DNA from: a virus
Lineage: Duplodnaviria > Caudoviricetes
Length of the DNA: 25,571 bases
Strand: one strand, 5' to 3'
Virus record (IMG/VR): IMGVR_UViG_3300001347_000043
Coordinates: 1-25,571 of that record
Shown here: piece after piece, positions 4,941 to 15,928 of the stretch
Numbering within the stretch: the first letter of the stretch is position 1
Layout: each line of letters opens with the position of its first letter
Notes under the pieces: model-generated
The model's database searches: none
What the model saw: only the letters and a program-made list of their open reading frames with translations
Told to the model about the DNA's origin: nothing
Program-made: the position numbers and the translations under genes

Positions 4941-6916
4941 GCTTTTTTATTCATCATTTGCATTGTGGCTATTCGCTCATTGCTAACAATGTCACGTTCT
5001 TTTAGCATTAGCTCAGCAATCTTAGCTCGTTTGGCAAACTCATCCTCATCTGCGTTACCTTCTTGAAGGTTAGTAGAGAGGGCTGCTGCCAGTTTAGCTT
5101 TGACCACTTCAGGCTCCAATTGAGCCTCTATGGCGTACTTTTGTGCCTTAGCCTGTGTTTCAGCCACCTGAGCCTGCAAAAGCTGCATCTGGAGCTGTGC
5201 CGTTTGCATCTGCATTTGCATCTGTTGTTGCTGCATTTGCTGCTGCTCAGGGTTAGGCTGAGAAGATTGCTTCATTTGAGCCATTAGCTCCTCACGGTTA
5301 GATATACCCATGTTATCCACAACAGCTGAGATCAGCATGGGGTAGATTGGGTTATCTTGGCCTACGGTCTGCAAGAGTTGTACAAGTTGTGTTACCTCAT
5401 ACTCACGAGCAATAACACCCAATGATGATGAAGGTATAAACTTATAATCGCTAACGGGATAATTATCTGGATCAAATTGCATGTACCTCCACGCTGTCTT
5501 CTCAATCATGGGGATTAGGAAGGATTCTTGGAAGTTAATCAAGGTACGCTTATGACGCTTGATAATTGCACCCAAAGACATGGATACAGCCCCTGCTGCT
5601 GCTTCACCGTTAATACTACCGGGAATACCAGCGGCATCTACAGCTCCTGTAGCCATCTGAACCATCTTCTGCAAATCAGCCGCCTGAGCGAAAGTCACTT
5701 GATCTAGGTTACCAAACTTAAAGGGCTGGAGGATCTCCGCAGGGTTACCGTTGGTAAGGATAGTCTTACCGGGACGGACTTCTAACTTAGCGCCACGGGG
5801 CATACGAGAGGCATCCATGGCAATCATAGGATGCACTGTAAGCGCTAAGGCATCAATACGAGCACGTAACTCAGCATCCAAAGCCTTCTGGCTGTTATAG
5901 CCCTTCTCGCAGATACCACGGCCCCAGAAGCGACTTGGGACCACATCCCAAGGGAAAGCCACTACAGGGCGGTCCTGCATCATGTAGGGGTTTTCTTCAA
6001 TCTTCAGAAGCTGACCGCCATTGGCAACAACAATGATTACCTCAATGTAGCCTTCATTCTTATCATCGTCATCGTCTTCTTTAGAATCATCTGTTTCTAA
6101 GTCAGACATTTCGTCTTCTTCTGAATCGTTAAGAGCAGCCGTGTACATGTGCTTAGGAACTAAACCATAGTAACGGGTTAAACGTACCTTATCGTCTTCA
6201 TAGGCCGTTATGTCTTTATCTGCTTCCAGATCAGTATCTGTATCAGCATCTTCAAGCTCAACATCGTTATAAATGCCAGATTCAATACCTTGCTGTACTT
6301 GGTGCTTAGGCACAAACTCATCAATTATGACACCCATAGCGTCTTCAATGGTTGTAGCCACAGGATCAATCAAGAAGTTCTGAGGAAGCACAGGACGCAG
6401 TTTAACAACAAAGCGATCACTAATGTTTACACCCACGGCCTGCATAGCACCATCCATAAGAGGCTGGGTAGCAGGTTTCATTTCCTTGACTTCTTCTAGT
6501 ACTATTTCAGCACAACCAGTACCAAAGACTGCGGAGTTAATAAGACATTCTGCCACAGCGCGACGGGTCTTTGTAAACTTAAAGTCCTCATCTAACTGGT
6601 TCTTAAGATATTCAACGTCACCTTTTTGCTGATCATTGCGGTCATCTTGAATGTCAAACCACTTACCTCGACCAAAGGTGGCCTCTTCTACCTCAGCGAC
6701 AGCACTTTCGACCGCCTGTTGTAGGGCAGGGGAGATCAGACGTGAGCGCTCTGAGTCACGGGTCTTGTCCTCTGCTGCCCAGACACCACGCCAGAGGCGA
6801 TAGTACTCGTCAAACTTGTCTTTATAGTTGGTATTGTAATGGTCGCGCCAGCGCTCGGCCTTGTCCATCACCCATTCTTCAACCTTAGGTTCCATGTATT
6901 TTTTATCGTCGTCCAT
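4937..6916 (-). CDS. Portal protein (P22-like head-tail connector)
   Basis: 659 aa between terL and scaffold; NFLIDP, ENPY, FWGRGI motifs; Gln-rich coiled-coil C-terminus. Confidence 0.9.
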   Translation of the reverse strand: MDDDKKYMEPKVEEWVMDKAERWRDHYNTNYKDKFDEYYRLWRGVWAAEDKTRDSERSRLISPALQQAVESAVAEVEEATFGRGKWFDIQDDRNDQQKGDVEYLKNQLDEDFKFTKTRRAVAECLINSAVFGTGCAEIVLEEVKEMKPATQPLMDGAMQAVGVNISDRFVVKLRPVLPQNFLIDPVATTIEDAMGVIIDEFVPKHQVQQGIESGIYNDVELEDADTDTDLEADKDITAYEDDKVRLTRYYGLVPKHMYTAALNDSEEDEMSDLETDDSKEDDDDDKNEGYIEVIIVVANGGQLLKIEENPYMMQDRPVVAFPWDVVPSRFWGRGICEKGYNSQKALDAELRARIDALALTVHPMIAMDASRMPRGAKLEVRPGKTILTNGNPAEILQPFKFGNLDQVTFAQAADLQKMVQMATGAVDAAGIPGSINGEAAAGAVSMSLGAIIKRHKRTLINFQESFLIPMIEKTAWRYMQFDPDNYPVSDYKFIPSSSLGVIAREYEVTQLVQLLQTVGQDNPIYPMLISAVVDNMGISNREELMAQMKQSSQPNPEQQQMQQQQMQMQMQTAQLQMQLLQAQVAETQAKAQKYAIEAQLEPEVVKAKLAAALSTNLQEGNADEDEFAKRAKIAELMLKERDIVSNERIATMQMMNKKA

Positions 6917-7038
6917 TACATAGCTTTCTTAGCGCGACTGTTGCGTTTTGGCAACGGACGTGGTGTTTTCTTTAGGCACTTACCTGCTGACTTACATTTA
7001 GCAGGAGTAGGGCAACCGGGGCATGGTTTAAAACTCAT
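6916..7038 (-). CDS. Small Cys-rich basic protein (40 aa)
   Basis: Not in ORF track: MSFKPCPGCPTPAKCKSAGKCLKKTPRPLPKRNSRAKKAM; GAAAGG RBS; TAATG-coupled to portal. Confidence 0.7.
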   Translation of the reverse strand: MSFKPCPGCPTPAKCKSAGKCLKKTPRPLPKRNSRAKKAM

Positions 7039-7058
7039 TGTTTACCTTTCTAGTTTAA

Positions 7059-7298
7059 TTAACATTTCCACTTCTTGAGTGCTAATGCTTTACGAGTAGG
7101 ACTTCCGTCCGGTTTCTTCATAGGTCCTTTAACACCGCCCATACGAGCACAGAAGGATTTCTTACGAGCACCACCCTCAGGCTGTGGACGCTTAAGGTTA
7201 CTACCTGTGGCTGCATTGATTCGCTTACGGCCTGACTCTGAAAGACCGCCTGTGGGATTCTTGTCCTTCTTGGTAAGAGAAATCTTCTTATCAGCCAT
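7059..7298 (-). CDS. Small basic phage protein (DUF6321-like)
   Basis: KNPTGGLSESGR...RKKSFCARMGG...ALALKKWKC motif; start placed at MADKK, overlapping the upstream stop. Confidence 0.75.
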   Translation of the reverse strand: MADKKISLTKKDKNPTGGLSESGRKRINAATGSNLKRPQPEGGARKKSFCARMGGVKGPMKKPDGSPTRKALALKKWKC

Positions 7299-7446
7299 TT
7301 TTGGCCTTCTTGGCTGTCTTAGCAGCCTTTTGGAACTGTTTAGCCGTAGGAGCACCCTTTGTACCGGGTGTTCTCATTTTCTCTTTACTACCCGCAGCTA
7401 TGCGCTTACGTTTAGCATGGATATTTGCATAAAGTCCGTTTGCCAT
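7291..7446 (-). CDS. Small basic protein (51 aa)
   Basis: Not in ORF track: MANGLYANIHAKRKRIAAGSKEKMRTPGTKGAPTAKQFQKAAKTAKKAKNG; fills the gap directly after the terL stop. Confidence 0.8.
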   Translation of the reverse strand: MANGLYANIHAKRKRIAAGSKEKMRTPGTKGAPTAKQFQKAAKTAKKAKNG

Positions 7447-7447
7447 C

Positions 7448-8701
7448 TTACCACCCCGCTACTGCGTCTATAGGTTCCCAATCGTCTTCTTCAAAGTCAG
7501 CGACATAGGATACCTTTGCCAATTGTTCGATATACGATAACGAGTCTACCAAGTCATCATGTACCAGCTTATTTGGGAATTGAAACAACTGGTCCAAGAA
7601 CTCGTTATTCCAATCACCTTTGTTTAGTGTTATGTAGCCATTCTCGAAACGACCTTGTAAAGACCAAACAACCCTATCTGTCTTCTTCTTGTTACCATGG
7701 GCCAGCTCATCAACTCTAAAGAATGTCTGAGAGCGTCTCATGATGTCACTAAGGTATGGCATAACGGCCTGTCGTGCAATACCCTTCTCAATCCCTACAG
7801 CGTTTGGTTCGTACTTCTTGACCACATCAAAGATCTTCTTAGCGGTCTTCTTTACGTCCCAACGACCATAGATAATTTCCTTGACATACCACCCCTTCTC
7901 GTTTGCCTTTACAACGGCAATAGAGGTGTTGTCTAGACGCTTGTTTTTAACTCCTGTAGAACCTTCTTCTTCAAAGCCTGCCAAGTCAATTGCAATGTAG
8001 TAGTCGCCAGACTCAGGTTCATCTTCATCGAACTTAATCCACTTCTCTTTGAATAGTTCGCCTCCAGCAGCCTCGAAGGATGCCATAAATTCCTGCCGGA
8101 ACGAGAATGAGGACATACTCTTTTTTGCTGCTTCAATTTCATTAGGGTCTAGTAAGGGGTTATCAAAGGAAGTAAAGTGGAATGCGCTAAAGGTTGGGTC
8201 TTCGCCTCGAAGGCCATGTTGATATAAATCATAGAAGTGGTTACGACCCATAGGGGTACCAATGAACAACGCAGAACCCTTCTGGTCAGCTAGAGCAGGC
8301 CTAAGGATCTGTTCCCAGACCTCTGGCTTCATGTCAGCATACTCGTCCATCACCAAGAACTTCAACGACACACCACGCATGGTCTCTGGTCTATCAGCAC
8401 CCTTGAGGGAGATTGTAGCTCCATTGACAAGCTTAAGCTGTAGGTTGTTAATGTGACTACCTTGGATAACCGGATGGCCTACCTCTAACAATGTCTGCCA
8501 CATAATGTCACGGGCCTGCCCTTGGGTCGGTGCGACATAAAAGACATGCCCCTTCTCAGCTTGTAGGGCATTAACAATAAGAAGATATGCTGCTAGACGA
8601 GACTTACCTGTACGCCGACCAGCGGCTACGACCTTAAATCGATGCTCATCATTCCAGACCTCTTGTTGCCAAGGGAGTAGTTTAATTTGTAGATCAGACA
8701 T
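7448..8701 (-). CDS. terL: Terminase large subunit
   Basis: Walker A AGRRTGKS, YVAPT, Walker B VMDE, GTP coupling motif, RNase H-like IDLAG and HDDLVDSL. Confidence 0.97.
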   Translation of the reverse strand: MSDLQIKLLPWQQEVWNDEHRFKVVAAGRRTGKSRLAAYLLIVNALQAEKGHVFYVAPTQGQARDIMWQTLLEVGHPVIQGSHINNLQLKLVNGATISLKGADRPETMRGVSLKFLVMDEYADMKPEVWEQILRPALADQKGSALFIGTPMGRNHFYDLYQHGLRGEDPTFSAFHFTSFDNPLLDPNEIEAAKKSMSSFSFRQEFMASFEAAGGELFKEKWIKFDEDEPESGDYYIAIDLAGFEEEGSTGVKNKRLDNTSIAVVKANEKGWYVKEIIYGRWDVKKTAKKIFDVVKKYEPNAVGIEKGIARQAVMPYLSDIMRRSQTFFRVDELAHGNKKKTDRVVWSLQGRFENGYITLNKGDWNNEFLDQLFQFPNKLVHDDLVDSLSYIEQLAKVSYVADFEEDDWEPIDAVAGW

Positions 8702-9083
8702 CTTTAATTTCTATATCAGTTACTTCATCGACAGTCTCTGGCTCACTTACGCTGGCTCCTAGACCTGTGATGTTGATCTGTATAGCAGACCTACCACCTT
8801 GCTTAACAACTTCTTGCTCAAAGGCCGACACAGGGATAATCCTATCTACGACCAACTTCCAAGCAGCAGCTTGATTCTTATGTTCGTTATCTAGAGCAGC
8901 ATCAAAGATGGCATCTAAGACCTTCCTTGACTTTGGGCTAGACAACATCCTAGCTTTATATTCGTTAATGATTGCAGCATCACCTTTAGGGCGACCTACA
9001 GCATTACGTTTAGTATTAGCAGACAACTCATTCTTTGGTGGTCTACCAATTTTTCTTTTTATTTCTGACATTAAAGTCTCCAT
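8694..9083 (-). CDS. terS: Probable terminase small subunit
   Basis: Overlaps the terL start; GRPPK/GRPKG DNA-binding motifs; AAWKLVVDR helix; IQINITG tail. Confidence 0.7.
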   Translation of the reverse strand: METLMSEIKRKIGRPPKNELSANTKRNAVGRPKGDAAIINEYKARMLSSPKSRKVLDAIFDAALDNEHKNQAAAWKLVVDRIIPVSAFEQEVVKQGGRSAIQINITGLGASVSEPETVDEVTDIEIKDV

Positions 9084-9214
9084 AGTTATCTTAGGAACTC
9101 CTAAGGCTATACACGAGTATTTATACTTTGGTTAGTGTTTGTTAATAACCAACATAAAGTATCATCACTATGTGGTGTATGGGTTTCTCGTGTTTGTGTC
9201 TCTATATACCTTAT

Positions 9215-9243
9215 ATTATAGCACAAAAATCCTTATTTGTCAA
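9215..9243 (-). promoter_or_regulatory. Sigma-70 promoter for the packaging operon
   Basis: TTGACAaataaggatttttgTGcTATAAT: perfect -35/-10, 17-bp spacer, extended -10. Confidence 0.9.
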
Positions 9244-9300
9244 GTGTTTTCTACTCTGTCCCTAATTAAACCTTAGTTTAGTACCATTTAAACAACAGTT

Positions 9301-9414
9301 TTTCTTTAGAATACATAAGCTTATATTACTTTTAGTATATAGAGGAGTTTCTTTAGTTTCTTTAGGGTCTAAAGGAGACTTAAGGGGCCAATGGAGGACT
9401 TAAGGGGCCAATGG
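9301..9414. repeat. Short direct repeats (TTTCTTTAG x3; GACTTAAGGGGCCAATGG x2, period 20)
   Basis: TTTCTTTAG at 9301, 9348 and 9357; 18-bp repeat at 9377-9394 and 9397-9414. Confidence 0.85.
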
Positions 9415-9522
9415 GATTCCAAATTACCCTTATTTTGTATCTGGGCGGGTACAGCTAAAATACAACATAGGCTGTCCCCTCCCCCGGGGGTCCAAAAGAC
9501 CCTACAGAATACTCAGGAACAC

Positions 9523-9725
9523 ACTACATTGGTACTACATCAGTCTACATCAGTACTACCAATGGTCCAATGGACCCATAGGAGGCCGTAGGAGGCCGTA
9601 GGAGCCATCGGAGGCCATGGGGTAGGGGTAGTCCTAGGGGTAACGTGTGTGTGTCGCAGTGGGACCCCATTAGTCCCCATTGGCCACCATTGGCCACCAT
9701 CAGTACCCATCAGTCACCATCAGTT
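9523..9725. repeat. Three arrays of ~10-bp tandem repeats near the probable genome terminus
   Basis: CTACAT at 9524/9535/9545; TAGGAGGCCG-like units at 9579-9616; CCAT at exact 10-bp intervals 9667-9717 (6 copies). Confidence 0.85.
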
Positions 9726-9766
9726 AGCAGGACCTAGGCAGCACTTAATACCCCTACTGTCACCAG

Positions 9767-9854
9767 TGTCAATATTCCGACAGTAGGTGTCAATAAACCG
9801 TCAATAAGTGTCAAAAAATTGACAGTTTAGGGGCCTAGTGTCAAAATATTGACA
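9767..9854. promoter_or_regulatory. Four phased 16-bp palindromic boxes, probable upstream activator sites
   Basis: TGTCAATATTCCGACA (9767), TGTCAATAAACCGTCA (9788), TGTCAAAAAATTGACA (9809), TGTCAAAATATTGACA (9839); spacing 21, 21 and 30 bp. Confidence 0.75.
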
Positions 9855-9909
9855 GGGTCCAAGGGCCTAAAGTAATACTCAAGTATGCAAAAAGACTATC
9901 TTTAGGAGT

Positions 9910-9925
9910 TGGCATGGGGTTTGCT
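9910..9925 (+). promoter_or_regulatory. Sigma-54 (-24/-12) promoter of the early operon
   Basis: TGGCATGGGGTTTGCT versus consensus TGGCACG-N4-TTGCW: one mismatch, exact GG-N10-GC spacing, 35 bp before the first early ATG. Confidence 0.75.
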
Positions 9926-9960
9926 TAGGTGTTGTCATACAAACCACCAAGGGAGACACC

Positions 9961-10143
9961 ATGGAAATTATCGTAACCATCAAGAGTAACTATGGCACTG
10001 AGACAATCTACCCCTCATGTCTCAAGGGTCACATATTCGCAGAGATGGCAGGCACCAAGACCCTGACCCCGCAGGCCATCAAGCTTATCAAGGCCTTAGG
10101 CTATACTGTGTCAGTCGCAGGTCCTGCAATCAAATCACTGTAA
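9961..10143 (+). CDS. First early gene, small hypothetical protein
   Basis: AAGGGAG RBS; YGTETIYP...AGTKTLT...IKALGY pattern seen in small phage proteins. Confidence 0.8.
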   Translation: MEIIVTIKSNYGTETIYPSCLKGHIFAEMAGTKTLTPQAIKLIKALGYTVSVAGPAIKSL

Positions 10144-10155
10144 AGGATAACCATC

Positions 10156-10851
10156 ATGCAAACTAAACAATTCGGCACCCTTATTGGGTCCTATGGCAAG
10201 GGCATCACAGGCAGTGCCACAGTCAACTTTACGACCAGTGGCGGCAAGCACTGTGATGACTCATGCCCTCTTAAGGGTAACGGGTGCTATGCCATCACAA
10301 CGGAGGCCATGAAACCTTCCATCACGATAAACCTAGAGCGCAAGCAGGAAGGCATCAGTGACTACCTACAGGCACTGGTGACCCCTAAGGCACTGTCCAA
10401 GCTTAAGGCGGCGCCTTGGGTCCGCTTTGCGGCCTTCGGATCTATCCCTGCCCCTCATGAGTTGACCTTAGAGGATTTCGGGAACCTTCGGACCCTTGGA
10501 GCCTCATTGGACCATTCACGGGTCCACTGGCCCACGGAGACCATAGCGAAGGCCGATATGCTTAAGGTCGCAGGGTTCACCCCAAGGGTCTCAGTGGCTA
10601 CCAATGTTCACCATCTGCCCGATGTAATCAAGGCAGGCCATGTAGCATCCTGTGCCGTGAAGGGTGACAAGCTTGCAAGAGGCAAAAACAAGCGGTCCCA
10701 TAGCGCACAGGCCATCACCTTCATGCGGGACCTGAAGGCCCAAGGTATCAACGCCAAGGTGTGTCCTGCTGTCGCAGGGAATGCCAAGTGCGGCGCCTGC
10801 ACTGCCTGTGCGGATAAGGCGGTACAGGTTATCGTTTACCCAATGCACTAA
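10156..10851 (+). CDS. Gp88-like Cys-rich (putative Fe-S) protein
   Basis: CDDSCPLKGNGCYA, VRFAAFGSI and C-terminal CPA...CGACTAC motifs. Confidence 0.65.
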   Translation: MQTKQFGTLIGSYGKGITGSATVNFTTSGGKHCDDSCPLKGNGCYAITTEAMKPSITINLERKQEGISDYLQALVTPKALSKLKAAPWVRFAAFGSIPAPHELTLEDFGNLRTLGASLDHSRVHWPTETIAKADMLKVAGFTPRVSVATNVHHLPDVIKAGHVASCAVKGDKLARGKNKRSHSAQAITFMRDLKAQGINAKVCPAVAGNAKCGACTACADKAVQVIVYPMH

Positions 10852-10863
10852 GGAGCACACACC

Positions 10864-11040
10864 ATGTCATCAAACCAAAAGTTTAGGGTCTACTGTACCC
10901 TTAGAGCCCTATTGATACAGAACCATCACGGCCTACTGTGCGAGAGCCTACAGCAGAACCTTGAGGACCTTATAAAGGCCTTTCCTAAGCTTGCCAATGA
11001 GGCCAGTGAATCAGTTTATTGTCAAATACACGACGTATAA
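10864..11040 (+). CDS. Hypothetical early protein (58 aa)
   Basis: Not in ORF track: MSSNQKFRVYCTLRALL...CQIHDV; AAGGAG RBS. Confidence 0.75.
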   Translation: MSSNQKFRVYCTLRALLIQNHHGLLCESLQQNLEDLIKAFPKLANEASESVYCQIHDV

Positions 11041-11052
11041 GGAGCACACACC

Positions 11053-11286
11053 ATGAAGTACACCAAACCGATTAACATCCAAGGCCTAGGGACCCGTGCC
11101 CTGCGAAGGGTCCAAGTGGGCCAGTGGGTCACAGCAGGCGAAGGCGGCCCCCTTGGGCGCTACCTTGGATGTAAGAAGTCGAGGACCCTCATTGTCGTCG
11201 TAGGGTGGCATGAGAACGCCAAGCGCTACCCCGAAGGTCCTACGGCCTACTGGCAAACCCTGCGCGACTATGCACTAGGAGAATGA
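11053..11286 (+). CDS. Hypothetical early protein
   Basis: AAGGAG RBS; tightly packed in the operon. Confidence 0.75.
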   Translation: MKYTKPINIQGLGTRALRRVQVGQWVTAGEGGPLGRYLGCKKSRTLIVVVGWHENAKRYPEGPTAYWQTLRDYALGE

Positions 11287-11290
11287 ACCA

Positions 11291-11680
11291 ATGAAAGTCT
11301 ACGTATATTTTAACCTCCATAAACGATGCTTCAGTGTCAAGGCACTGGAAGGGCAGGCCAAGGGCCTAGTGATTGCCTATGCCAACGATGTGGTGCTATT
11401 TGACCCTGTGTTCAAGGTCTCGAAGGCAGGCAGGGAGAGGGTCCTACGTGAACGGAAAAAGAATGTCCATGCAGGCGTTGTCGGTGACTGGGACCCTGCA
11501 CAGTACAAGCCTGCGCGTACGGTAGAACTATGGGCCACTGGTGGGCGTGAAGTCACTTACAACCCGTACAAATACGAACAGTTCGTGTACAGGAACACGG
11601 AGACGCCAGTAGACAATCAACCGCGCTATGCAGGGTTGCACAGTGACGGCACACGTGCCACAATGTGGGCCTTGAAGTAA
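11291..11680 (+). CDS. Conserved phage hypothetical protein
   Basis: VYFNLHK..FSVK, GRERVLRERKKNVHA and VTYNPYK motifs recur in phage early regions; AGGAG RBS. Confidence 0.85.
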   Translation: MKVYVYFNLHKRCFSVKALEGQAKGLVIAYANDVVLFDPVFKVSKAGRERVLRERKKNVHAGVVGDWDPAQYKPARTVELWATGGREVTYNPYKYEQFVYRNTETPVDNQPRYAGLHSDGTRATMWALK

Positions 11681-11698
11681 CCAAAGGAGAATGAACCA

Positions 11699-11896
11699 AT
11701 GACCAAAAACGAAACCCGAGCACTGATTGAGATGTGCATGACTGCACTTGAGAATGTGGCCTCCGAGGCCGTGATTAAGCATGAGCGAGGCCTGACCAGT
11801 GAAGAGCTAGACCGATTCTATGGGTTCCTGTGCGAACAGCAACAGGGTCTTGCAGGCCACCATCCTGATTTTAAATTCACACGGGGGGACCAATGA
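11699..11896 (+). CDS. Hypothetical early protein
   Basis: AAGGAG RBS; ATGA overlap with the next gene. Confidence 0.75.
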   Translation: MTKNETRALIEMCMTALENVASEAVIKHERGLTSEELDRFYGFLCEQQQGLAGHHPDFKFTRGDQ

Positions 11897-12285
11897 CCCC
11901 TATAGAACACGCCATCATGACCCGTATGGAGATGAACGAGACAAACGATTGCTCAGTGCTCGCCCTCGCCATGGCCTGCCGTATTGACTACCACCTGTCC
12001 CATGTAGCCTTAAAGATGGCAGGCAGGAAGAACAGGCAGGGGGTCTTCCCCGAGCATATTAAGAAGGCCACGGAGAACCTAGGTTTTACACTAGGTCCTG
12101 TGATCAGGCCAAAGCAGGCCAACGGGTCCAAGTACACGCCGAGGACCATAGCAGAACAGTTCCCCGCAGGCCGCTATTTAGCGTTCAGCAGGGGTCATGT
12201 GTTCGCACTGGTCGATGGTGAGGTCAGGGACTGGCACAAAGGCCGCAGGTATCATATAATCAAGGTTCAAGAAATTAAGGAGTAA
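11893..12285 (+). CDS. Putative papain-fold (C39-like) Cys-His-Asp protein
   Basis: NDCSVLALA nucleophile helix and GHVFALVDG...D strand; function is inferred. Confidence 0.5.
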   Translation: MTPIEHAIMTRMEMNETNDCSVLALAMACRIDYHLSHVALKMAGRKNRQGVFPEHIKKATENLGFTLGPVIRPKQANGSKYTPRTIAEQFPAGRYLAFSRGHVFALVDGEVRDWHKGRRYHIIKVQEIKE

Positions 12286-12290
12286 CCATC

Positions 12291-12503
12291 ATGACAATTT
12301 TAGACACACCCGAGCAGATCAACGCTTACCGTCTCGCAACCCTACGCACTGGCCTACGGTCCGAGATCAGAGGCCTACGCATGACCAGAGGCCGTACGTG
12401 CTACGCCATCCTCAAGGACATGGGGTACAAGGGTTCCCGTGCGAAGGTACTGGAGCAGGTCACTGCTGACGTAGAGGCACTGAAGGAGGCCATAACAGCA
12501 TGA
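12291..12503 (+). CDS. Hypothetical early protein
   Basis: AAGGAG RBS; ATGA-coupled to the next gene. Confidence 0.75.
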   Translation: MTILDTPEQINAYRLATLRTGLRSEIRGLRMTRGRTCYAILKDMGYKGSRAKVLEQVTADVEALKEAITA

Positions 12504-12709
12504 TAGAATCACCACGCACCTACTACATATCAACACGTACAAGTGCGGGGTGGCATCGACTGCACCCTGAGAACTATCCCTCACTAGAGACCGCTACACT
12601 GGGCCTAGAGAGACACTTGGACAGTATGTTTTTTGAGCACGGGGAGATGCTCCCTAGTGGAATTTTTCGCATCGTACGGTGCAAACCAAGGAAGGTAAAA
12701 CAAGCATGA
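12500..12709 (+). CDS. Hypothetical early protein
   Basis: AGGAGG RBS; coupled on both sides. Confidence 0.7.
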   Translation: MIESPRTYYISTRTSAGWHRLHPENYPSLETATLGLERHLDSMFFEHGEMLPSGIFRIVRCKPRKVKQA

Positions 12710-12774
12710 TCATCATAGGCCTAGCCCTCTTCGTTTTTGTCGCCATGGTATGGGCGGCATGGAACAACCCCTAA
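12706..12774 (+). CDS. 22-aa hydrophobic membrane peptide
   Basis: MIIIGLALFVFVAMVWAAWNNP; ATGA overlap; AAGGAAGG upstream. Confidence 0.55.
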   Translation: MIIIGLALFVFVAMVWAAWNNP

Positions 12775-12793
12775 ACCATAAGGAATATTTACA

Positions 12794-12919
12794 ATGTTTG
12801 AACTACTCATGAAGGCCCTGATGGTTGCATCAGGTGTAGCTATCTTCTTCGCCCTAGGTGCTCTGTTCGCTGACTACCTAGAGTCTGTCTCTTACCGTAA
12901 ACGCAACAAAGGAAAGTAA
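12794..12919 (+). CDS. 41-aa single-pass membrane peptide
   Basis: MFELLMKALMVASGVAIFFALGALFADYLESVSYRKRNKGK; TAAGGA RBS; basic tail. Confidence 0.65.
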   Translation: MFELLMKALMVASGVAIFFALGALFADYLESVSYRKRNKGK

Positions 12920-12922
12920 ACT

Positions 12923-13168
12923 ATGGAACTATTCAAAATATCCAAGCTGACGGGTATGCCACACGTCATGACCATACCGCTGACTGAGCAGGCCTACGGC
13001 TACCTGTACAACCAGTGGAAGAACGAAAACCGCCTGATACAGGATGTGTTCTGTATGCTGAACGAGGACGAACGCGAGTTCATCATGAACGGCATTACGC
13101 CTGAGGAGTGGAAGGCCACATGGATGGCATACGACGATTATCAACAAGAGGAGAAGGACAATGCATAG
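12923..13168 (+). CDS. Conserved phage hypothetical protein
   Basis: LIQDVF..LNEDEREFIMNGITPEEW motif; AAGGA RBS. Confidence 0.8.
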   Translation: MELFKISKLTGMPHVMTIPLTEQAYGYLYNQWKNENRLIQDVFCMLNEDEREFIMNGITPEEWKATWMAYDDYQQEEKDNA

Positions 13169-13361
13169 CGACGAGCTACTGGAGGTAGTACTGGACCAGA
13201 TACAGCAGGACATCAAGGACGGTGATGTAACGTCACTGTTCGATATGCTAGAGTACATAGACCACGATACACTGGTGGGTTTTCTGTCCTACAGCCGCCT
13301 TGACAGTGCCCTTGAGCAGGGGTTAATAACAGGAGAAGAACATAATGAACAAGTTGTATGA
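13161..13361 (+). CDS. Acidic hypothetical protein
   Basis: GAGGAG/AAGGA upstream; overlaps both neighbours. Confidence 0.7.
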   Translation: MHSDELLEVVLDQIQQDIKDGDVTSLFDMLEYIDHDTLVGFLSYSRLDSALEQGLITGEEHNEQVV

Positions 13362-13632
13362 TCAAGTCGAGGAGCTATTGGACGAACACCATGAGGCTGA
13401 AATAGGCCGTTTGTTAGGCATCCCTGACAAGGACGCCAAGCTGATAGTCAGGGGTCTCCGCAGTCACCTCAATGACTGGAGGCCAGAACAGGTCGCCGGA
13501 GACGTGTGGGCCATCTTCAGCGAGAGTTACAGCGCTGAGTACATAGACGCCGAGGGCCACTATCAAGGCTTTGACACCAAGGGAGAGGCATTAGAGTACA
13601 TAACAAAGGAAAAGATCAATGAGCACAGCTAG
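13345..13632 (+). CDS. Acidic hypothetical protein
   Basis: AGGAG RBS; overlaps the thyX start. Confidence 0.7.
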   Translation: MNKLYDQVEELLDEHHEAEIGRLLGIPDKDAKLIVRGLRSHLNDWRPEQVAGDVWAIFSESYSAEYIDAEGHYQGFDTKGEALEYITKEKINEHS

Positions 13633-14248
13633 TCTAGTATGGGCCACACCAGACGCAGAGGATGTAATCGCCTACTGTGCCCGTGTGTCTAACCCTGACA
13701 ACCAGAACAACGTCAAGACTGCCTCACGGCTTCTTAAGTACCTGAGGGACCATAAGCACTGGTCACCTTTCGAGATGGCCTCTGTGTGCATGGAGATCAA
13801 CACCACGAGGGACATTGCACGTCAAGTGCTCAGGCACAGGTCCTTCAGTTTTCAGGAGTTTAGCCAACGGTACGCTGAGAACCTAGGGTTCGAGGAACCT
13901 ACAGCACCACGCCTACAGGACCACAAGAACCGACAGGCCAGTATTGAGGTTGATGATGAGTACTTGGACCAGTGGTGGAAGAGCGTACAGGTTCGTATGG
14001 CAGGAGAATCAGAGTTCCTGTACAAGCAGGCACTGGACCGAGGGATAGCTAAGGAGGTGGCACGTAAGCTACTTCCTGAAGGTCTCACACAGTCTCGGCT
14101 GTACATGGCAGGCACTATGCGCTCATGGTTGCACTTCATTGAGGTACGTACAGGCCCTGAGACCCAGAAGGAACACAGGGACCTTGCAAACCAATGCCTT
14201 ACTGTGTTACAATCGGTATCTCCTGCAATCTTTGGAGAACCATCATGA
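13619..14248 (+). CDS. thyX: FAD-dependent thymidylate synthase
   Basis: HWSPFE, RHRSFSFQEFSQRY (RHR-x7-SxR ThyX motif), EVARKLLP, TQKEHR. Confidence 0.97.
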   Translation: MSTASLVWATPDAEDVIAYCARVSNPDNQNNVKTASRLLKYLRDHKHWSPFEMASVCMEINTTRDIARQVLRHRSFSFQEFSQRYAENLGFEEPTAPRLQDHKNRQASIEVDDEYLDQWWKSVQVRMAGESEFLYKQALDRGIAKEVARKLLPEGLTQSRLYMAGTMRSWLHFIEVRTGPETQKEHRDLANQCLTVLQSVSPAIFGEPS

Positions 14249-14379
14249 CAGTAATAGAATGGGCCGCAGTCACCATGATCACGTTGTTCGGTGCCTTTGT
14301 AGGTGCCGCCTTTGGAGCGTGGTACATCATTGGCTTTTCGTTACTCCATTGTCCTAAAAACATCCCATCACTACTATGA
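14245..14379 (+). CDS. Small membrane protein (44 aa)
   Basis: Start at ATG 14245 (GGAG RBS, ATGA overlap); hydrophobic segment. Confidence 0.6.
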   Translation: MTVIEWAAVTMITLFGAFVGAAFGAWYIIGFSLLHCPKNIPSLL

Positions 14380-14585
14380 ACGATTACAAATTTGTTGAGA
14401 TGGTGTACGAAGACGGCGGTCCTTGCATGGACTGTATGCACAAGTACATCGAAGAAGAGACCTATCCCTATGGAGAAGGCACAGTGACCCAGAACTTCAG
14501 GGGTTGCCTAGTGCTAGACACAGGGTTCGGAGTATGTGATACTGCACAGAAATGGAAGGAGAGTGAGAATGGAGAAGATCTTTGA
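14376..14585 (+). CDS. Small Cys-containing hypothetical protein
   Basis: CMDC...PYGEG...C..C; ATGA overlap. Confidence 0.7.
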   Translation: MNDYKFVEMVYEDGGPCMDCMHKYIEEETYPYGEGTVTQNFRGCLVLDTGFGVCDTAQKWKESENGEDL

Positions 14586-15021
14586 GCCGTTTATTGGACC
14601 CAACGGTTGGTACTGCCACTATGAGGGCCACGTAGGTGTGGGTCTCACTAAGCAGGAAGCAGAACGTGAAGCAGTAAACAAATACGACATAGCAATGGAG
14701 AAACACTATATGGGCAAGATGAAGAACCAAGTGACAGCAGAGATGGAGATTACAGGCAACGACATTCATGAGGTCCTTGAGGCCCGTGGGAGACGCTACG
14801 GTGAGTACCATATGGTCGCTCAGTTATCACAGGCCCTTAAGGAGGCACTACAGGTGTCACCAAGCTGGGTTCACATGGAACCTCATCAGCAGGAGTCTCT
14901 GGAGATGATCTGCAATAAAGTGTCTCGTATTTGCAACGGTGATCCGTTCTACGTAGACTCATGGCGTGACATAGCAGGCTATGCACAACTGGTGGTCAAC
15001 GAACTGGAGAAGAGCCAATGA
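14569..15021 (+). CDS. DUF6378-like protein
   Basis: RGRRYG...KVSRICNGDPFYVDSWRDIAGYA motif; start set at MEKIF after AAGGAG. Confidence 0.75.
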   Translation: MEKIFEPFIGPNGWYCHYEGHVGVGLTKQEAEREAVNKYDIAMEKHYMGKMKNQVTAEMEITGNDIHEVLEARGRRYGEYHMVAQLSQALKEALQVSPSWVHMEPHQQESLEMICNKVSRICNGDPFYVDSWRDIAGYAQLVVNELEKSQ

Positions 15022-15194
15022 CTAGAGAAGAATTACGTCAGGAACTAATGAAGGACACCACGGAGTACTGCTGTTACTGTGGTGGTGAAAAAACAACATT
15101 CCAATGCTGTAGGGAAAACCACTTTGAGACCTTCGCTCAGATGGAGGCCTACGCACAGGAGGACTTTTTAGACTACGAAATGGATAACCAATGA
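15018..15194 (+). CDS. Small Zn-binding hypothetical protein (58 aa)
   Basis: Not in ORF track: YCCYCGG...QCCRENHF; GGAG RBS; ATGA overlaps on both ends. Confidence 0.7.
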   Translation: MTREELRQELMKDTTEYCCYCGGEKTTFQCCRENHFETFAQMEAYAQEDFLDYEMDNQ

Positions 15195-15540: not shown

Positions 15541-15690
15541 ATGAAGAAGATGTCACTGACACAGGCATATCACCTGATCGCCATGTACAAGATATGGCCT
15601 GCTGCACAACTGACAACCGATCAACTGACTGAACTAGTGGAGGCATACAAGACGATAAAACAAGACAGAGAATCAAAACAGACCCCTTAG
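15541..15690 (+). CDS. Hypothetical protein (49 aa)
   Basis: AAGGAG RBS; MKKMSLTQAYHLIAMYKIWP...KQTP. Confidence 0.65.
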   Translation: MKKMSLTQAYHLIAMYKIWPAAQLTTDQLTELVEAYKTIKQDRESKQTP

Positions 15691-15760
15691 GTATACCTAG
15701 GTATAGGTAGACCCCTAAAAACGCAACAGAGGCCGTTCTGAGGCCTTTTAGGAGGACTTT

Positions 15761-15922
15761 ATGAGATGTGTGGCTTGCAACAAAGCACTGAGTGACAAAG
15801 AATCGACGTTTAAGAACCTGCAAGGAGACTACATGGATATGTGTTTCGACTGCTTACCTTATGTTTTTGACTCTTTTGAAGGTGATAACGAAGAAGATGT
15901 TGACAAGGAGGAAAAACCATGA
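15761..15922 (+). CDS. Small zinc-finger protein (53 aa)
   Basis: MRCVACNKALSD...DMCFDC (CxxC...CxxC) with an acidic tail; AGGAGG RBS. Confidence 0.75.
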   Translation: MRCVACNKALSDKESTFKNLQGDYMDMCFDCLPYVFDSFEGDNEEDVDKEEKP

Positions 15923-15928
15923 TACAAT
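15900..15928 (+). promoter_or_regulatory. Sigma-70 promoter for the replication operon
   Basis: TTGACAaggaggaaaaaccaTGaTACAAT, 17-bp spacer, extended -10. Confidence 0.85.

Follow-up and report, generated by a model that had tools for sequence, protein, structure and literature searches.

At a sigma-54 promoter the holoenzyme does not open until it is remodelled by an activator that hydrolyses ATP, and at flagellar promoters the activator FleQ is inhibited by c-di-GMP (PMC10723142, partial text). The FleQ box consists of GTCAAT and ATTGAC two bases apart, upstream of a -24/-12 core. Such 14-bp boxes precede the FleQ/sigma-54 flagellar promoters of the Pseudomonas fleSR and fliL type and those of Vibrio (FlrA/FlaK), and at the FleQ-controlled pel promoter FleQ boxes overlap sigma-70 elements (PMC10723142, partial text). 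A site for IHF between enhancer and core is optional in sigma-54 promoters (PMC2709558, partial text). Among phages, promoter P015 of Pseudomonas phage YuA has been assigned to host sigma-54 and its start has been mapped; it is one promoter among 21 starts, and the accessible part of that account describes no activator, enhancer or exchange (bioRxiv 10.1101/2023.10.13.562163). Sites for host master regulators in phage promoter regions, with a proposed tie to the state of the host, are described for CtrA ('lytic deferment'), Spo0A in phi29 and LexA (PMC9437464), and the accessible part of this source does not mention sigma54, FleQ or NtrC. A sigma-54-like phage promoter and the sensing of host regulators are already known. 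In the openly accessible main texts searched, we came across no phage promoter described as having a FleQ or NtrC enhancer.

To our knowledge, the usual assumption for lytic phages is a start from sigma-70 promoters that are constitutive, or from a polymerase of their own. Since a sigma-54 promoter is shut until an activator opens it, one that heads the early genes would tie the first step of infection to the state of the host.

The window, by which we mean the whole stretch of 25,571 nucleotides analysed (IMG/VR record IMGVR_UViG_3300001347_000043, Caudoviricetes), belongs to an uncultured marine phage whose replication genes are T7-like. The genes for structure and packaging are read leftward from 9083; those read rightward from 9961 comprise small early genes, ThyX, primase/helicase, family-A polymerase, Cas4-like exonuclease and ribonucleotide reductase. 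Between them lies an array of boxes which, like the flagellar promoters, has the 14-bp GTCAAT-NN-ATTGAC form upstream of a core. Unlike those promoters, the locus is on a lytic phage, stands before genes annotated without function, has four boxes and no clear IHF site, and its FleQ boxes are predicted from sequence. It shares with pel the overlap of FleQ boxes with sigma-70 elements, but has a retained sigma-54 core downstream, and its sigma-70 match is weak. CtrA, Spo0A and LexA act on sigma-70-type promoters or on the timing of lysis, whereas the window would strictly need an ATP-dependent activator for its first promoter, and the regulator sensed would be exchangeable.

No cultured phage is close. 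The polymerase is 53% like that of pelagiphage HTVC103P, to which capsid and terminase are not close; capsid identity to cultured phages is at most 36%, and a blastn search of cultured phages with 9000-12000 returned three short hits, all outside the region. Relatives were fetched with the 129-aa ORF as query, which has no PHROG or Pfam match and to which 6,232 protein clusters are related. As the family is large in marine data and without a close cultured member, the result would bear on when infections in the sea proceed. The large terminase found no match in five genomes with FleQ-type promoters, nor, at E 1e-60, in 401 genomes from the order to which G006 belongs. Assembled contigs of six RNA runs contained 5-15% of the window's words; those examined, from four runs, cover coding and non-coding DNA alike and may contain DNA, so that they indicate no start.

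The box array and the sigma-54 core

The array comprises four 16-bp boxes spaced 21/21/30 bp, three of them of the form TGT-N10-ACA and two perfect TGTCAA-N4-TTGACA palindromes, which are the only such boxes in the window (Table 1). The four boxes, their spacing and their forms had been given in the preliminary description and were confirmed, as was the placement about 80-170 bp upstream of the predicted start: the box centres lie at about -90, -120, -141 and -162. A common helical face, also claimed there, is exact for the 21/21 spacing and only approximate for the 30. Against GTCAAT-NN-ATTGAC, boxes 3 and 4 have one mismatch each and boxes 1 and 2 three each. The GTCAA..CCGAC form of box 1 is also found in L365 and in other phage lineages; that of box 2 corresponds to secondary boxes upstream of fleS-like genes (L176, L178, L225), and L365 has no box 2.

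The core, with GG and GC 10 bases apart, is the only site in the window within one mismatch of what we take to be the sigma-54 consensus, and in the complete relative G001 (36.8 kb) it is the only strict core. The start would fall near 9936, presuming that it lies 12 bases after the GC. The core faces the ribosome-binding site AGGGAGA (9950-9956) 40 bp away, followed by ATG at 9961, so that the element stands as first described, ahead of the first early ribosome-binding site. Among 300 dinucleotide shuffles of the window, a core arose in 20, a perfect box in none and the two together in none; a chance origin of box plus core is excluded. The first gene behind the core varies among relatives, and whole small genes are gained or dropped directly behind the promoter, at 9952-9961 and 10147-10152.

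Table 1. Features of the window from the large terminase to the replication genes
Feature	Position	Strand	Remarks
Large terminase	7448-8701		phrog_2 match
129-aa ORF	8694..9083	-	upstream of large terminase; small terminase by position only
Sigma-70 promoter, packaging and structural genes	9215..9243	-	TTGACA-17-TG-TATAAT, 12/12
Putative direct terminal repeat	9477..9668, approximate		C-rich motif to GTGTG..ACCC motif
Exchangeable enhancer cassette	9748..9905		FleQ boxes here; DnaA-type and three NtrC-type boxes in sister phages
FleQ-type box 1	9767..9782		TGTCAATATTCCGACA; degenerate, GTCAAT-AT-TCCGAC; box start 142 bp from core
FleQ-type box 2	9788..9803		TGTCAATAAACCGTCA; degenerate, GTCAAT-AA-ACCGTC; 121 bp from core
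FleQ-type box 3	9809..9824		TGTCAAAAAATTGACA; perfect palindrome; 100 bp from core
Sigma-70-like element	9819..9847	+	TTGACA-17-TG-CAAAAT from boxes 3 and 4; 10/12, no T at -12
FleQ-type box 4	9839..9854		TGTCAAAATATTGACA; perfect palindrome; proximal, 70 bp from core
Palindrome ATACT-NN-AGTAT	9875..9886		between enhancer and core, slot often bound by IHF
Sigma-54 -24/-12 core	9910-9925	+	TGGCATGGGGTTTGCT
Early gene run	9961..15194	+	small ORFs, closely packed
DUF7227 protein	10156-10851	+	within early gene run
L5 gp82-like	11291-11680	+	within early gene run
ThyX	13619-14248	+	within early gene run
Sigma-70 promoter, replication genes	15900..15928	+	TTGACA-17-TG-TACAAT, 11/12

As a bacterial control, GTCAA-N4-TTGAC followed by a core was searched for; of the matching stretches, which number at least 120, 80 were fetched. 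A downstream ORF was present in 71 of these loci, and 60 of the genes were scanned. They encode FliL (13), histidine kinases that we call fleS-like from their build (8), FliG (1), FliW (1), sigma-54 activators (9) and GGDEF proteins (3); fliL, fleS-like, fliG or fliW thus stands behind the pattern in 23 of the 80 loci, and none of the 60 scanned genes belongs to a nif family. As far as the motifs tell, the boxes fit FleQ/FlrA and not NifA. The resemblance to FleQ had already been suggested in the preliminary description, and the match to the published consensus together with the flagellar-gene context in bacteria bears out that family. The parallel proposal of a NifA-type upstream activating sequence was rejected: TGT-N10-ACA is formally present in three boxes but is unspecific, occurring at 14 sites in the window, 11 of them outside the array, and none of the genes scanned behind the bacterial pattern is of a nif family.

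The distance from proximal box to core peaks at 65-68 bp (35/80) and 75-79 bp (24/80) in the bacterial loci, with just 3/80 at 69-71 bp. It is 68-70 bp in three phage lineages and 80-82 bp in others; the 70 bp of the window is off the bacterial peak, the 68-70 bp class by 2-4 bp. In the sphingomonad genomes L198, L199, L213, L224, L229, L234 and L238, FleQ-type boxes and a core precede a sigma-54 activator gene, so the phage host need not be a gammaproteobacterium.

The palindrome between enhancer and core recurs, with at most two mismatches, at 15 of the 19 phage FleQ loci that are distinct versus 2 of 77 bacterial ones, and at 4/58 phage and 1/30 bacterial NtrC loci; a near copy lies at 9109. 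No good IHF site was found between enhancer and core in the window, the best matching 6 of 9 positions of the consensus that we assume. Some NtrC-type relatives, e.g. L088, L312 and L355, do match it.

PHROG and Pfam matching of the window's own ORFs gave no sigma-54 activator, in agreement with the preliminary description. There was likewise no match for an RNA polymerase or an integrase, either in the window or in the scanned extra ORFs of G001, which also gave no activator match. PF00158 (Sigma54_activat) was searched in related records and was absent from all five, four of which are at least 90% complete; the control was positive in 14/14 genomes.

Enhancer exchange and recurrence in other phages

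A 231-aa early protein fetched 11 loci, of which L001 does not count as independent, being identical to the window throughout the stretch compared. All 11 retain the core, with either of two enhancers. Four have the window's boxes. The other seven (L004-L010) are without them and have three 17-bp TGCACCA-N3-TGGTGCA-like boxes 82, 102-103 and 123 bp upstream, together with what we take to be DnaA-type boxes. Since glutamine synthetase lies behind this pattern in 21, and P-II in 2, of the 30 bacterial loci fetched, we regard the sister boxes as NtrC sites; the NtrC motif is our assumption, supported empirically by that gene context. Of the 401 genomes from the order of G006, 36 have pattern and core together; the reversed control gave 0/401. 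The sister cassette shares this arrangement with NtrC/sigma-54 promoters of the glnAp2 type, from which the window differs in having no NtrC boxes and the sisters in the accompanying DnaA-type boxes. The accessible part of PMC8041468 makes no mention of an NtrC consensus.

The breakpoint can be placed in L444, which is 91.2% identical to window positions 6906-9747 and then continues with the NtrC cassette from 9747, 20 bp before box 1. This contig, which stops short of the core, has the same terminal repeat and a 98% identical 129-aa protein, and no FleQ boxes. Judged by their motifs, two unrelated activator consensuses occupy one slot before one retained core. This enhancer exchange between near-identical phages is what appears to be new here; it stands out most among the findings and lends itself best to testing, as it provides a natural matched pair for asking whether phages read motility or nitrogen status.

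In L365, whose 129-aa protein is 86% identical, three FleQ boxes lie at 131, 100 and 69 bp. Box half-sites and distances are held while the spacers drift; box 3 stays at 100 bp despite the diverged spacers. When viral contigs were scanned for a core with two FleQ-type boxes, 23 loci were found, 19 of them distinct, of which five are arrays or mixed. Outside the clade of the window, the layout recurs in three further lineages. One, a distant branch of the window's family with terminases at 53-55%, has boxes at about 131/111/68, with one member shifted by 12 bp, about one helical turn, to 124/80. A phage with a terminase at 27-28% has FleQ boxes at 122/89/69, and another lineage keeps a strict 21-bp period (145/124/103/82). 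The combination of NtrC boxes and core was found at 69 viral loci, 59 of them distinct and 35 of these in the window's family.

A quick terminase tree shows the enhancer labels to be patchy; its 63 distinct rows, some of them picked by motif, each have 300 or more aligned residues and 900 bp or more of upstream DNA. In 8 of the 63 rows the NtrC-plus-core unit faces back to the genome end. In L299, L308, L348 and their kin, NtrC boxes and core point toward the genome end and packaging genes, 490-670 bp upstream of the 129-aa ORF; a copy of such a unit at the right end would face late genes.

A probable host-activated early promoter and its alternatives

We consider that 9767-9925 is probably a sigma-54 early promoter activated by host FleQ. 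Enhancer and core would lie just inside the left end, in the DNA that presumably enters first, the order of entry being taken from T7-like phages. Once this end is in the cell, the host sigma-54 holoenzyme would form a closed complex at the core; host FleQ dimers would occupy the boxes, oligomerise and loop to the polymerase, whose complex they would open with ATP, and RNA would start near 9936. As sigma-54 activation by FleQ is inhibited by c-di-GMP, early expression would be highest in cells building flagella, and the NtrC-type sisters would respond to nitrogen limitation instead. The window's early genes are thus likely to be expressed best in flagella-building cells and those of the sisters in nitrogen-limited cells.

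What favours this reading is that the core is retained though FleQ boxes are swapped for NtrC boxes, with the breakpoint at 9747 in L444, that the distances are held in L365 and the layout in three other lineages, and that the five related records lack PF00158. The spacing 2-4 bp off the bacterial peak counts against it, as do the frequency of reversed box-plus-core units in viral contigs, the kept 10/12 sigma-70-like element, the NtrC units that point back and the cores without an enhancer.

Gating of infection or of DNA entry may follow from such a promoter. A strict gate seems doubtful and less likely than such a promoter; the effect may be only a bias of early expression. The weak sigma-70 element of boxes 3 and 4 could yield basal RNA, although other FleQ lineages are without it. 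The replication and late genes have sigma-70 promoters, so that a gate needs entry tied to early transcription, and both activators may be mostly active in nutrient-poor water. Tentatively, one may go further and picture a lytic marine phage population polymorphic for a host-state sensor of about 160 bp before its only early promoter, in which recombination would swap FleQ and NtrC boxes, so that near-identical phages would be restricted either to motile cells low in c-di-GMP or to cells limited for nitrogen, both in committing to infection and perhaps even in completing a DNA entry driven by transcription. If true, phages with such a sensor would partition one host by physiology and not by receptor.

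Some of the evidence could also speak for an array that starts no early RNA and acts as a decoy or end-binding platform, on which FleQ and sigma-54 holoenzyme would be titrated and the DNA end shielded or pulled in; we regard this as unlikely for the window. The wider family offers arguments for it. From 251 protein-picked loci, 160 with enough upstream DNA were grouped into 107 clusters, of which 47 have a core (about 1 expected), 30 at least two DnaA-type boxes (0 expected), 6 NtrC boxes, each with a core, and 2 FleQ boxes; most core-bearing clusters have no recognised enhancer. Among the 85 clusters with both end motifs, 32 have cores within the presumed terminal repeat (82 forward, 22 reverse), often tiled or face to face. 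In L103/L570 about 15 tandem FleQ-type boxes abut five tiled cores, and the viral contigs taken together have 42 forward units of box plus core, modestly above the 32 reversed, and 13 with a scrambled core. Beyond the repeat the same 85 clusters have 16 forward cores, toward the early genes, versus 1 reverse, and all six clusters with an enhancer there have a forward core (6/6). The window itself has a single core, outside the repeat and facing a nearby ribosome-binding site, with boxes at enhancer distance, and a decoy needs neither the distances retained in L365 and other lineages nor a core kept through the FleQ-NtrC exchange. By its layout the window unit has the shape of a promoter, and the family contains such promoter-shaped units alongside tiled arrays that may serve as decoys or as platforms for binding at the end.

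Quite unlikely, in our estimate, is a sigma-70 promoter under FleQ control, made of TTGACA (9819), in which the right half of box 3 doubles as the -35, and the extended -10 TG-CAAAAT (9842-9847), with RNA starting near 9854. FleQ on boxes 3 and 4 would repress or release it, and the phage may then be expressed in both c-di-GMP states. FleQ boxes do control a sigma-70 promoter at pel (PMC10723142, partial text). The element, a 10/12 match with TG, is retained in all five close FleQ-type relatives scanned (L001-L003, L363 and, with an 18-bp spacer, L365). Yet it is an automatic product of two palindromes 30-31 bp apart and has no T at -12; upstream of the core it is absent from 10/10 loci of three other FleQ lineages, in which some proximal boxes have no TTGACA, and from the NtrC sisters, and it leaves the retained sigma-54 core unexplained. 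A sigma-70 promoter has -35 and -10 hexamers 16-18 bp apart; sites like the present one, 10/12 with TG, number 14 in 7.7 kb versus 8.4 expected. The sigma-70 rule found a promoter in just 27 of 70 clusters without a core outside the repeat, so that its silence is weak evidence.

It is very improbable that the boxes serve a phage protein for packaging or replication that binds at the genome end, the core being a bystander: the array does lie 100-190 bp from the presumed terminal repeat, and the ATACT-NN-AGTAT palindrome accompanies phage and not bacterial FleQ loci, so that another factor may bind there, but L444 lacks such boxes despite its near-identical 129-aa protein and its repeat, and the boxes fit a host flagellar-promoter consensus while their replacement fits another host consensus.

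Motifs at the genome end

The presumed terminal repeat was placed by conserved motifs. Of 83 related contigs ending on this side, 33 stop within 300 bp past the conserved C-rich motif, and at least 15 of these, by eye, end in or beside the GTGTG..ACCC motif, which is present in 85 of 97 clusters. A candidate sigma-70 promoter in some relatives, TTGACA-17-TATGTT, was dropped because of its overlap with the terminal motif. At 9530-9730 there are runs of 10-bp tandem repeats, imperfect and differing in copy number among relatives.

Inside the presumed repeat, L427, L434, L478, L500, L078 and L056 have sigma-54 cores in tiled arrangement, at most 8 forward and 4 reverse; these often form face-to-face pairs 7 bp apart, of which both members could not start RNA. 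Up to 9 DnaA-type boxes, by the motif that we assume, lie in or near the repeat of L408, L436, L296, L352 and L485. L352 has two perfect FleQ-type boxes among its DnaA-type boxes, about 770-800 bp upstream of the 129-aa ORF, and three cores as well as NtrC boxes are present in this phage. In the window, a GC-rich stretch at 15685-15755, ahead of the replication genes, resembles, by eye and when reversed, a motif close to the end of L408, L436 and L501, and is possibly a processing or origin signal.
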